A stretch of DNA of 64,000 nt, from the NCBI GenBank assembly GCA_026004595.1, contig BPJL01000001.1, forward strand, positions 26,486-90,485, written 5' to 3'. Below are positions 11,214 to 13,931 of the stretch, in pieces. Made by a program: the position numbers and the translations under genes. The notes under the pieces were generated by a model that ran no database searches, was not told where the DNA came from, and saw only the letters and a program-made list of their open reading frames with translations. This DNA is from Patescibacteria group bacterium (GTDB lineage Bacteria; Patescibacteriota; WWE3; UBA101185; UBA10185). How positions within the stretch are numbered: position 1 is the first letter of the stretch; each line of letters starts with the position of its first letter.

Positions 11214-13040
11214 TTAATTTCTCTTTTCCAAGTCAAAGAGCCGGCTTCTTATAGCTATGTATCCGGGAGCTCGCAGATTGAAAACGGTTTTGAATGTGTC
11301 GCCGCTAAGGGTCACGGTGCCTTTATCAGTATCGAGAATGACTTTTGAGGTATAGCCGCCGTTGCTTATGTCAACATCAACCGAGGTCACCTTGGAGTAT
11401 TTCTCGCCGTATTTGTCAGCCTTTTCCGCCATTTCGTCCATGGAGTACGGATCGCCTCCCCAGCAGCTTGTTGTCACTGGGGAAATGTGATCCCTTTCGC
11501 TGTTTGTGCCTTTATTCCAGACAACGTAAGCGTTGAGTATGTCGGCCATCTCTTTTTCTGAAAGCCACGGGTGGGGATGGTCGCAGTTGTCGTTGCTGCT
11601 ATAGCTTTTTGTGTACCAGGCTTTATAGAACCATGGTGAGCCGGCTTTCTTTTCATAGGCGTTTCCGGGCCAGCTGCCATAGGTGTCCCATCCGACATTT
11701 TCTATATAACCGCCTGTGGTTGAGGAGTAGTATGCGACCACATCATTGCTCACGATTTTATCTTTTGTGTCATCAACTGCTTTTTTCCATCTCGACGGGG
11801 GGTTTTCGCTTTTGCTTTTAGAGAAGACCTGACAGTTTTGAGTGGTGCAAATGCAGCTTCCCTTTTTGTAGTACCTGTATGCGTAGGACCTGGCGGCTAT
11901 TGCCTGGGCTTTTAAAGCCTCTTCGGGCCAATCGCTTGGCATTTCAGCTATTCCGTACAGGTATTTTTGAAAATCCATGTTTCCATAGCCCTCAACGCAC
12001 AACTTGTCTGGAAAATCACTTTGTTCTTTAACATCAGTTTTGTAGTAAAACTTTATTATTTCCTTATAGTTTTTTCCTGCTTCCGCTCGGCCCTTGGCTC
12101 CGTATTGGCTCATTCCTTTGTAATGTGTGTATGCCCCGTAGCTAAAAGCCGCGTATGCAGGTTTGAATGGAGGATCAGGAGTTTTGGCTGATGGGGGTTC
12201 ATAATCTCCTACCGATCCGTATTCATCCCCGTACTTTTGTTTCAATATGCTCTGCTGTTTTTCTGAAAGTTCAGAGATTTCTTTTTCGAGATTTTGGAGC
12301 CTATTTTGGTAGGTGGTTTCCTTTGCTGTTACATCTCTTAGTTCGCTTTGGGCGGTGTTTTTTCGGGCGTCAAGACGGGATTTGACGGCGAGAAATTCGT
12401 TTTGGGTTTCTTCTAATTCTTTCTTTAGTTTTTCTCCTTCGGCTTTATCCTTTTCGTATGTGTCAATTTCTGAGTTTAGGCCTGAAATAATTTTTACGGT
12501 TTCATCAGTAACAGCTGCGTTAAAAGCTTGTGAGAGGGTAGCGAACTGGAAGCCGGTCAGGCCGAGGGGGTTGGATGCGAGGAGGGTCTCAATGTCATTG
12601 AGGAGGTGCCTTTTTGCGTAGGTGCGTAGAACTTTGTTTCTCAGAGAGATTTTTTCGGCCAGGCTGTCTTTTCTGTCAGTGAGTTTTGCATTTATTTCAT
12701 CAAGCTGTGTTTTGACTTTAGTGATTTCATCCTGGAGGTCGTCGATTTCAGCCTGGGTAACATTTAGCTGGTTGAGAAGGTCGTTTATCTTTTGGGAAAT
12801 CTCGTTTTTGGTGGCGCGGATTTGTTCAAGTTTGCTGCTGGTGGATTGGTATTCTTCTTCTTTTTTTTCTATTTGTTCGGCGTAGCAGTCAGCTCTGTCG
12901 TCGAGGTCTTGGATGTTTTTGCAGGGGTCGCCGGCTAGGGTGTTGGTTGAAAAATCTGCTATAGCAATCATTAAGCATACAGCGACGATTGTGTGTCTAA
13001 CCACACTTGCAATTTTTTTGACAAGGACAGTACTTATCAC
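11214..13040 (-). CDS. SpoIID/LytB-domain protein with a long N-terminal coiled coil (EnvC-like) and signal anchor
   Basis: N-terminal TM/signal. Residues ~60-250 are heptad-rich (Q/E/K/L) coiled coil. The C-terminal half contains SpoIID/LytB hallmarks (YKGMSQYGAKGRAEAG, YLYGIAEMPSDWPEEALKAQAIAARSYAYRY). Confidence 0.7.
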   Translation of the reverse strand: MISTVLVKKIASVVRHTIVAVCLMIAIADFSTNTLAGDPCKNIQDLDDRADCYAEQIEKKEEEYQSTSSKLEQIRATKNEISQKINDLLNQLNVTQAEIDDLQDEITKVKTQLDEINAKLTDRKDSLAEKISLRNKVLRTYAKRHLLNDIETLLASNPLGLTGFQFATLSQAFNAAVTDETVKIISGLNSEIDTYEKDKAEGEKLKKELEETQNEFLAVKSRLDARKNTAQSELRDVTAKETTYQNRLQNLEKEISELSEKQQSILKQKYGDEYGSVGDYEPPSAKTPDPPFKPAYAAFSYGAYTHYKGMSQYGAKGRAEAGKNYKEIIKFYYKTDVKEQSDFPDKLCVEGYGNMDFQKYLYGIAEMPSDWPEEALKAQAIAARSYAYRYYKKGSCICTTQNCQVFSKSKSENPPSRWKKAVDDTKDKIVSNDVVAYYSSTTGGYIENVGWDTYGSWPGNAYEKKAGSPWFYKAWYTKSYSSNDNCDHPHPWLSEKEMADILNAYVVWNKGTNSERDHISPVTTSCWGGDPYSMDEMAEKADKYGEKYSKVTSVDVDISNGGYTSKVILDTDKGTVTLSGDTFKTVFNLRAPGYIAIRSRLFDLEKRN

Positions 13041-13067
13041 AAGTTAATTATACCAAGCAAAATTTTT

Positions 13068-13931
13068 ATGGGTGCAATGTCTTCACCTACCCTAGATTTT
13101 TTTGTTGGAAATTGCTACTGTATATGTGTGAAGTTAAACATACACCTTTTTTTTAAGCGGGAGGGTTTCGTTTGGATTTTAAGCCCTTTCTCTATTTTTT
13201 TACTCTTTTCATTTGTATTTTTTGCACTGGATAGTAGCGTGCAAGTGTTTGCTCAAGGTACTTGTGTACTCCAAGCAAGTGGTGTGTGTGGAGGAGCTAC
13301 TAACCCGGTTACCGGAGTAGTAAGCAACTGCAGCACAGGTTATAGGTGTCAGTGTACGTACTCTCAGGGCTGCAGTTGCGTAATAGATCCCTTATGCGGA
13401 GCTATCAATCCGAATGATCCGGTATGTGGTAGTAGTACAGCCCAACTCTGCGGGGTAGCTGGTGGGTGCGGTCCCTACATGATGCGCTGCGGTATATTAG
13501 GCACCGGGGGGTACGGGTGTTACAACGATGCAACTTGCTCATGTGAAGTGGGCATGACCTGCCCTGGGGACGTGGGTCGATGTATAAATGGAGAGTGCCG
13601 AATTGATGATAGTGGAACAATAATTCCTCCCGGATATGACGATCCTGCAGCGTCCATAATAAGACCGTATCAAGGTCCCATAATAAGTAACATAACAGGT
13701 CTTTTATCCCCCATCTTTAAGATTCTCTTCTACGCTGGAATCTTCATCGGGTTTTTAGGTATAATTTATTCAGGATACCTTTTCATATCCAGCGAAGGCG
13801 ACCCAGGAAGGGTAAAAGAGGGGAGAGAGCAGTTCACAGCCGCTGTTCTAGGGTCTCTCTTCGTTTTATTGTCAGTATTTATAATCCGAGTTATAATCAA
13901 CGAAATCCTGGGTGTAGACTCAGGGCTGTAA
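13068..13931 (+). CDS. Cys-rich secreted domain fused to a C-terminal VirB2/TrbC-pilin-like 2-TM hairpin module
   Basis: The ORF opens at 12993 but would overlap the divergent SpoIID gene, so the start is probably at the internal Met (13068) or a downstream alternative start. The hydrophobic signal ends AQG. A ~150-aa domain carries about 30 Cys in CxC/CxxC patterns. The last ~70 aa are TM1 - SEGDPGRVKEGREQ loop - TM2, paralogous to the three downstream small ORFs. Confidence 0.45.
   Translation: MGAMSSPTLDFFVGNCYCICVKLNIHLFFKREGFVWILSPFSIFLLFSFVFFALDSSVQVFAQGTCVLQASGVCGGATNPVTGVVSNCSTGYRCQCTYSQGCSCVIDPLCGAINPNDPVCGSSTAQLCGVAGGCGPYMMRCGILGTGGYGCYNDATCSCEVGMTCPGDVGRCINGECRIDDSGTIIPPGYDDPAASIIRPYQGPIISNITGLLSPIFKILFYAGIFIGFLGIIYSGYLFISSEGDPGRVKEGREQFTAAVLGSLFVLLSVFIIRVIINEILGVDSGL

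Follow-up and report, generated by a model that had tools for sequence, protein, structure and literature searches.

A probable VirB2-like pilin gene with a variable cysteine-rich head at the front of a pilin array in a WWE3 (Patescibacteria) genome

The window analysed here, a 64-kb stretch (64,000 nucleotides) of contig BPJL01000001.1, is chromosomal DNA of the KatS3mg101 metagenome-assembled genome (MAG; WWE3/Katanobacteria) and harbors the housekeeping genes for tRNA synthetases, L25, SmpB, tmRNA, DnaG and sigma-70. Its subject in this work is a gene ending at position 13931 on the plus strand, which probably encodes a VirB2-like pilin with an additional cysteine-rich domain at the N-terminus. 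We call this domain the head, the C-terminal pilin module the stalk and the whole protein the head pilin. The open reading frame (ORF) is intact and in its maximal version extends from a GTG at 12993 to 13931. The same gene is deposited at NCBI as GIW69299.1 (KatS3mg101_0046), annotated from an ATG at 13068 (287 aa), and the JGI/Logan annotation starts it at an ATG at 13077 (284 aa). As argued below, the most likely start is a GTG at 13128, which gives a probable coding sequence of 267 aa (13128-13931, plus strand) with intact orthologues in at least eight species. The gene heads a four-gene pilin array of which all members match Pfam family PF18895; its place as the first of a tandem family had been noted in a preliminary description. 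On the minus strand the order of genes is L25, g123, g604, DUF5657, g184 and a SpoIID-like gene, followed on the plus strand by the head pilin, pil2, pil3 and pil4; after pil4 come g210 and g1267 (minus), g442 (plus) and g1272 (minus). This local order is conserved in all WWE3 loci retrieved (L001-L013), and orthologues of the head pilin fill the same syntenic slot in every WWE3 genome examined. In the databases the homologues carry the label 'candidate division WWE3'.

The predicted protein begins with a Sec signal peptide (MKLNIHLFFKREGFVWILSPFSIFLLFSFVFFALDSSVQVFA, 13128-13253), recognized by hydropathy as a hydrophobic N-terminal segment ending VFA|QG, with predicted cleavage after VFA. 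In aligned orthologues the corresponding sites read ASA|QG, AVA|QG, VFA|AE and TYA|QC. The Cys/Gly-rich head follows (13254-13598). The exported region holds 18 Cys and 24 Gly in 129 aa, the cysteines spanning 112 aa from C91 to C202 of the maximal ORF; compared to a mean Cys content of 0.87% in the other 47 ORFs of the window, this is an enrichment with a binomial P of ~1e-16. The signal peptide in front of a Gly- and Cys-rich region was thus described correctly at the outset, and the figure of about 30 Cys in about 150 aa has to be corrected to 18 in 112. The maximal ORF contains 22 Cys, four of which lie 5' of the probable start in an extension that is probably untranslated. Successive cysteines are separated by 7, 13, 5, 1, 5, 1, 5, 9, 7, 5, 6, 9, 5, 1, 5, 6 and 4 residues, which amounts to three CxC and one Cx4C; of the CxC/CxxC/CxxxC spacing originally reported only CxC stands, CxxC and CxxxC being absent from the head and the remaining intervals being Cx4-13C. 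The head contains six Tyr and no Lys, His, Phe or Trp. It is connected to the stalk by a Pro-rich acidic linker of ~30 aa (RIDDSGTIIPPGYDDPAASIIRPYQGPIISN, 13599-13688), which includes IIPPGYDDPAASIIRPYQGP and terminates in a conserved Y-x-G-P-I-I motif. The stalk (13689-13928) consists of transmembrane (TM) helix 1, a loop (SSEGDPGRVKEGREQ), TM helix 2 and a short tail, and has no Cys. Sequence and hydropathy thus confirmed the order of a Pro-containing linker and a two-helix hairpin.

Residues 233-301 of the maximal ORF match PF18895 (T4SS_pilin, VirB2-like) with 25.7 bits (E 1.3e-5), in agreement with the pilin-like hairpin noted earlier. All 18 homologues collected match the same family (best E 1.6e-8), three of the 18 also match TrbC/VirB2 (PF04956), and a precomputed PF18895 match is present on many orthologues. 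Structure prediction with AlphaFold2 (AF2) was run twice, once for the full mature protein with 18 sequences and once for the head alone with five; the stalk was modelled as a helical hairpin with helices at residues 146-178 and 183-218 of the mature protein and a predicted local distance difference test (pLDDT) score of 75-85. Hydropathy and the AF2 model agree on the VirB2-type layout of a signal peptide followed by two hydrophobic helices with a short polar loop. An S-x-GDP loop motif is common to the stalk and the three downstream paralogues, to which the stalk aligns with 19-26% identity (BLASTP E 0.002 against pil3); since the C-terminal module aligns with its neighbours, the finding survives the refuting condition of this kind that was set at the outset. 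The mature protein is ~225 aa long, unlike the small hairpin-only VirB2 pilins of ~70-120 aa. Identity as a type IV pilus pilin was considered and rejected. The class III signal (G|F/M-x-x-x-E) is approximated in the window by KREG|FVWIL, which has no Glu at +5, the motif does not occur in the orthologues (MFLAKNKFFKVLGVASF...), and the protein has a C-terminal two-helix hairpin and no single N-terminal helix.

The position of the start codon was examined by comparison of orthologous loci. Alignment of the DNA of the window with six orthologous loci revealed two conserved promoter-like boxes (13093-13127, plus strand): box 1, T[AG]GATTTTT, at 13093-13101, and box 2, which is CTGGTAGATTTTA in the orthologues and has CTACTGTATATGT at 13115-13127 as its counterpart in the window. 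In the orthologues these two non-coding boxes sit 10-15 nt 5' of the ATG. Both ATGs used in the databases (13068 and 13077) lie 5' of the boxes in the window, and from box 2 to the hydrophobic core GTG 13128 is the sole canonical in-frame start. Used as start, it would give a signal peptide of 42 aa (32-38 aa in orthologues) and a divergent intergenic region of 87 nt (76-155 nt in orthologues). Because of the upstream boxes, the signal-peptide lengths and the intergenic spacing of the orthologues, GTG 13128 is favoured over 12993, 13068 and 13077; the suggestion of an internal or non-ATG start is supported in this form. The overlap with the divergent SpoIID-like gene, whose 5' end lies at 13040 or earlier, applies to the maximal version from 12993, and disappears with each of the other three starts. 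Since the boxes lie directly 5' of GTG 13128, the transcript would have a very short or absent leader. A generic sigma-70 scan called no promoter at 13093-13127, and ribosome-binding-site mapping found no candidate start of the head pilin with a convincing Shine-Dalgarno sequence. An in-frame GGGAGGG at 13159-13165 was rejected as a start signal, as only the non-canonical codons GTT, TGG and ATT follow it. As a separate observation, the head pilin, pil2 and smpB genes all have a TGGTAGAAT/TAGATT-like -10 box 9-14 nt 5' of the start codon (13093-13127, 13950-13971 and 24830-24854), and the starts of pil2 and smpB likewise lack a convincing Shine-Dalgarno sequence, which points to very short or absent leaders as a common feature of the source organism.

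Head and stalk have diverged at very different rates. Among the WWE3 orthologues the stalks are 76-80% identical, whereas identities of the heads range from 0 to 36%. Relative to L001 and L004 the window shows 76-78% identity in the stalk, 75-82% in SpoIID and 70-80% in pil2, and the head gives no tblastn match to these two loci at E <=1e-3. Relative to L007, L010 and L012, which have the same 18-Cys layout, identity is 33-36% in the head and 76-78% in the stalk. Within this 18-Cys subfamily the total never deviates from 18, and conservation extends to 17 of the 18 Cys columns. Across head-bearing relatives the head varies from 112 to >500 aa and the proteins contain 18, 20, 22, 30, 32, 34, 40, 44 or 62 Cys, with none in the stalks; the count is even in every complete protein except P0009, of which a near-identical genomic copy has 32. 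Pairwise ratios of nonsynonymous to synonymous substitution (dN/dS; Nei-Gojobori method, NG86) between close species are 0.06-0.12 for the head and 0.06-0.07 for the stalk, dN of the head being 2.4-4.5 times and dS 2-3.6 times that of the stalk. A dN/dS of ~0.1 marks the head as functional coding sequence on which purifying selection acts, even though it diverges much faster than the stalk; gene-wide diversifying selection is rejected by the same value. A discordance between head and flank was also observed: the window SpoIID is closest, with 80-82% identity, to that of lineages with 32-Cys heads (L004/L008), yet the window head is of the 18-Cys type, and in the lineages sharing this type (L007/L010/L012) SpoIID is only 56-66% identical to the window. 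Exchange of heads, or independent gain and loss of modules, could be behind this pattern.

Similarity searches did not connect the head to a described domain. Neither Pfam nor NCBIfam gave a match to the window head, and the heads of the 18 homologues had none in Pfam. A profile search of the PDB returned only the conotoxin Mo3964 (2mw7) with a non-significant E of 1.4, and this match was to the C-x6-CC repeat of longer heads. A phmmer search of 1.84 billion representative proteins retrieved nothing beyond the query, the WWE3 subfamily (E 1.7e-4) and a pair of repeat proteins, which were rejected as homologues because they are compositional artefacts. Foldseek comparison of the head models with the PDB gave nothing significant (best E 2.1), a result that is uninformative due to the low pLDDT of these models. 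No profile match, and at the low confidence of the head models no fold match, supported a knottin/inhibitor cystine knot, granulin, hevein or TNFR-CRD framework. A hidden Markov model (HMM) of the C-x6-CC-x9-C-x6-C-x6-C module of longer heads matched neither the window head nor g1272, so that we make no claim for this module as a building block of the window head. Méheust et al. reported that bacteria of the candidate phyla radiation (CPR) show an enrichment of VKOR and an MdbA-like oxidoreductase (bioRxiv 10.1101/335083); the 64-kb window contains no gene for either.

The three small paralogues downstream of the head pilin are pil2 (13972-14307, 111 aa, PF18895 28.0 bits), pil3 (14391-14699, 102 aa, 28.6 bits) and pil4 (14702-15136, 144 aa, 23.8 bits), all on the plus strand. 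Pil2 also has a weak NCBIfam match to Mbov_0395, a pilin-like conjugal transfer protein. A promoter-like site, TTGTCA-17-TATAAT (13869-13897, plus strand), precedes pil2 and falls within the 3' end of the head-pilin gene; it agrees with 11 of 12 consensus positions and is located inside the codons for LSVFIIRVII. Both hexamers are preserved as DNA in 7/7 orthologous loci, which suggests an internal promoter for pil2. Between pil2 and pil3 there is a putative structured element (14305-14390, plus strand) with a hairpin, GGGCCCGG-loop-CCGGGCCC, behind which the window has a T-run. This element of ~80 nt with its GC-rich hairpin occurs at the same position in L004, L007, L008, L010, L012 and L013, and since its sequence is almost invariant in the seven loci it offers no covariation. 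It aligns over the full length with the Rfam ATPC motif RF01067, with a score below threshold (28.3 bits versus a gathering cutoff of 45, E 0.0086); the ATPC motif is likewise located between genes of small membrane subunits. The element may be a terminator or control stoichiometry. Because of the promoter-like site, the conserved 40-nt spacer ahead of the gene and the 3' hairpin, pil2 is probably a separately and more strongly expressed unit, which fits a role as major subunit with the head pilin as the minor one.

A connection to a type IV secretion system (T4SS) is suggested by related loci. Six homologues of g442 on long contigs were inspected (L015-L020). Two metagenomic loci among them, L017 and L018, have the same order as the window: a SpoIID-like gene, one or more divergent head pilins and three small pilins, and then genes for a small protein, for one of 1,000-1,200 aa and for the g442 homologue. 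Directly after the latter they encode PrgI/VirB3 (31.9 bits), a TraC-like protein and a VirB4 ATPase (P-loop_TraG 53.6 bits, DUF87 37.6 bits), and the T4SS genes are followed by dnaN, yidC, rnpA and dnaA. Compared gene by gene to L017, the window shows 50.5% identity in SpoIID, 40% in the stalk, 32% in g442 and 21% in g1267 (E 2e-15). The first pilin of L017 has 610 aa and 44 Cys and contains a CHB_HEX_C_1/Fn3_assoc (chitobiase-C) domain (49.4 and 44.8 bits), and the last one (5031-6245), the positional counterpart of pil4, carries a PPC domain plus a Cys-rich head. In L018 (573-4330) there are three tandem head pilins of 438, 522 and 290 aa with 30, 44 and 22 Cys, whereas L020 and L015 encode head pilins of 457 aa (40 Cys) and 647 aa (62 Cys), respectively. 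The stalks of the L018 and L020 proteins are 38-52% identical to that of the window (E 8e-16 to 2e-21). By sequence, the window gene belongs to a wider class of head-bearing VirB2-like pilins whose gene cluster is joined to the T4SS core in some lineages. As several of these proteins, for example the three of L018, have no precomputed PF18895 match, HMM surveys geared to small pilins may overlook them. In the literature searched there was no paper on a large Cys-rich or lectin-like ectodomain fused to a VirB2-like pilin; WWE3 is absent from the supplements of PMC12102498, and for this group type IV pili alone were reported by Kantor et al. 2013.

The interpretation we favour, with a probability of roughly 0.55, is that the protein is a VirB2-like pilin incorporated as a minor subunit, whose head is a variable recognition domain stabilised by disulfides and exposed on the pilus of a Patescibacteria T4SS. 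Disulfide bonding, membrane topology, polymerisation, minor-subunit status, location at the tip or laterally and adhesin function are features we infer. Export by Sec and signal-peptidase cleavage after VFA would free the N-terminus outside the membrane, where the head of 112 aa, devoid of Lys, His, Phe and Trp, could be oxidised to about nine disulfides and form a compact domain. The two-helix hairpin would remain embedded in the membrane, its GDP-containing loop facing the cytoplasm as in other VirB2 pilins, until the T4SS pulls it into a filament built mainly from the small paralogues, with pil2 as the best candidate for the major subunit. In F-type and conjugative pili the inter-helix loop lines the lumen and both pilin termini are outside (PMC5018250), and because the N-terminus points outward in VirB2-type pili the head would be displayed outward as well. 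Growth of the pilus takes place at the base, under a tip that is assembled beforehand and formed by VirB5 in diderm systems (PMC12624023). The head might be shown along the pilus surface, or at the tip if the subunit is incorporated first. Monoderm T4SSs are without VirB5, and a PrgB-type adhesin was not found in Patescibacteria (PMC12102498). The head may fill the VirB5 role as a module that evolves fast and serves to recognize or adhere to host cells or surfaces. The adhesin-like arrangement that was initially suspected fits an exported, variable, Cys-rich N-terminal head on a pilin stalk, and related loci carry recognizable domains for adhesion or glycan binding (CHB_HEX_C_1/Fn3_assoc) in this position. 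Arrays of VirB2-like pilins are common among Patescibacteria, and in Southlakia epibionticum, the single cultured relative tested, they are essential (PMC12102498, PMC10633639, PMC12857230).

Several observations count against this interpretation. The PF18895 score of the window stalk is just under the gathering threshold of 26.6 bits, and its loop has a net negative charge, in contrast to the basic lumen-lining loops of F- and T-pilins. VirB4, VirD4 and PrgI were not found in the 64-kb window, nor was a P-loop motif in any of its ORFs of at least 300 aa, so the link to a T4SS depends on two distant syntenic loci and on published work. For the head itself, AF2 gave a low-confidence string of short beta-hairpins (pLDDT 30-57 in the full protein, 44 for the head alone), there is no indication of a ligand, and the gene-wide dN/dS of ~0.1 bears no sign of positive selection. 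Furthermore, no pilus has been seen for any Patescibacteria T4SS, and PMC12857230 treats it as a possibility only. The last point and the lack of a T4SS ATPase in the window would also suit a surface protein that does not polymerise, in which the hairpin is a mere two-helix membrane anchor for a Cys-rich ectodomain acting as adhesin, receptor or structural protein of the envelope. Such a protein would have the same predicted topology, and heads of 112 to >500 aa could get in the way when subunits pack into a filament. We regard this as the main alternative, though less likely than the favoured interpretation: the stalk is the most conserved part of the protein (76-80%), beyond what a generic anchor needs, the gene is always first in an array of bona fide small pilins, and its counterparts in L017 and L018 are linked with PrgI and VirB4.

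If the hairpin does polymerise, the head pilin might itself be the major subunit, giving a filament sheathed in disulfide-rich knobs that serve for protection or for spacing through the wall and S-layer and not for specific recognition. The high conservation of the stalk would agree with this, the linker of ~30 aa could let the heads splay outward, and a head without Lys and with many predicted disulfides suggests protease resistance. We consider it improbable, as it is pil2 that has its own conserved promoter-like site and 3' hairpin, as expected of a highly expressed major subunit, and as the size of the head varies about five-fold between species while the stalks are constant and three different head pilins occur in L018. 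Less probable still is a metal-binding or redox-active, metallothionein-like head, or a Cys-rich toxin or peptide released from a pilin-like carrier. Such functions are brought to mind by the very high Cys density, the three CxC motifs and a repeat type in relatives with the same Cys spacing as conotoxin Mo3964, a match that is not significant. The region is however exported behind a signal peptide, has neither His nor CxxC, lacks a conserved processing site between head and stalk and matches no Pfam or PDB entry. The metal-binding role raised at first is therefore unlikely, and disulfides are to be expected rather than metal sites because the Cys counts in relatives are even and often not multiples of four (18, 22, 30, 34, 62). 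That the Cys-rich region is a frame artefact or part of a pseudogene might be argued from the overlap of the maximal ORF with its neighbour and from the first 45 codons, which are probably untranslated; this is effectively refuted by the comparative data, namely intact orthologues in at least eight species, conserved Cys columns and a dN/dS of ~0.1 in both head and stalk.

The head pilin and its paralogues share with the VirB2-like arrays described for Patescibacteria a stalk matching PF18895 (in the head pilin just under the gathering threshold), a chromosomal location in a monoderm CPR bacterium and a tandem array, here of four divergent paralogues whose identities of 19-26% are close to the published mean of 25% (PMC12102498). 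In related loci the syntenic cluster adjoins PrgI and VirB4, whereas the WWE3 array does not adjoin virB4. The pilins described so far are small and head domains are unmentioned (Wang et al. 2023, PMC10633639; Quinonero-Coronel et al. 2025, PMC12102498), unlike the first gene of the window with its Cys-rich head of 112 aa and the relatives in which the head exceeds 500 aa. Similar to VirB5, TraC and CagL, the pilus-tip proteins of diderm T4SSs, the head is proposed to be exposed where a VirB2 filament ends distally and to serve there in recognition or adhesion (PMC12624023). There is no relationship in sequence or fold, and membership of that group is not claimed: VirB5 is a separate helical protein forming a pentamer, whereas the candidate adhesin of the window is fused to the pilin itself. 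The logic proposed here, of a scarce subunit that adds an extra domain to the pilin stalk and is placed at the tip, has a parallel in another filament superfamily. Minor pilins of type IV pili with a bulky extra domain, such as CofB and TcpB, initiate assembly and sit at the tip; their extra domain is C-terminal, while the head of the window protein is N-terminal. Large Cys-rich extracellular proteins of CPR Peribacteria, with an average of ~1,650 aa and a proposed role in attachment, resemble the window head in being exported, very Cys-rich and variable between strains (PMC4736985), but they have no pilin module and no sequence similarity to the head was detected. VirB2-like arrays and Cys-rich attachment proteins of CPR bacteria were thus known already, and the literature searched held no description of such an ectodomain fused to a VirB2-like pilin.

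How CPR/Patescibacteria recognize and attach to hosts, and what role the essential, relaxase-less T4SS with its pilin arrays has, are questions still under debate. No adhesin has been identified so far for the Patescibacteria T4SS, and the head pilin is a concrete and testable candidate for the recognition element. A more speculative proposal, which we put forward tentatively and regard as possible though on the unlikely side, is that head-bearing pilins are host-range determinants of this T4SS, the head, which diversifies rapidly and is disulfide-rich or in some lineages glycan-binding, priming assembly, capping the tip, replacing VirB5 and selecting the host cell. If this were true, the symbiont would be directed to other hosts whenever head modules are exchanged or expanded, within a range of 18 to 62 Cys and one to three head pilins per locus.

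The SpoIID-like protein (11214-13040, minus strand, 608 aa) has a membrane anchor, a long coiled coil and a SpoIID/LytB domain (PF08486 68.9 bits, TIGR02669 119.5 bits), and its gene is divergently paired with the head pilin in all WWE3 loci as well as in L017, L018 and L020. By analogy it is a candidate wall-remodelling partner corresponding to VirB1, which was noted as missing in the Patescibacteria T4SS (PMC12102498). Downstream of pil4, two conserved cluster genes (15139-19561, minus strand) encode g210, a protein of ~200 aa with a single TM segment, and g1267 (15758-19561), a protein of 1267 aa with ~870 cytoplasmic residues, one TM segment and an extracellular C-terminus bearing a HELGH zinc-protease-like motif at residue 1170. 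The product of g442 (19617-20945, plus strand, 442 aa) is a polytopic membrane protein with ~7 TM segments after an exported Cys-containing domain, and its family comprises 103 clusters and is without a Pfam entry. Because this family is located directly upstream of PrgI/VirB3 and VirB4 in L017 and L018, g442 is a candidate for a divergent VirB6 analogue; VirB6 was reported to be scarce in Microgenomatia (PMC12102498). The giant cluster protein g1272 (21001-24819, minus strand) has a signal peptide and 42 Cys. Searches of Pfam, NCBIfam and the PDB gave no significant match for g604, g184, g210, g1267, g442 or g1272.

Two further parts of the window lie outside the cluster. At 57318-60483 a type I restriction-modification methylase (HsdM-like) adjoins a specificity subunit, and HsdR was not identified among the window ORFs scanned. 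A block of low GC content at ~49344-54392 (0.32-0.34 as compared to ~0.41 elsewhere) encodes a carotenoid-type pathway, with genes for a lycopene cyclase, a CrtI-like amine oxidase, a phytoene/squalene synthase, a UbiA prenyltransferase and a polyprenyl synthetase. The shift in composition suggests that this block was horizontally acquired, and a pathway of this type is unexpected in a reduced CPR genome.

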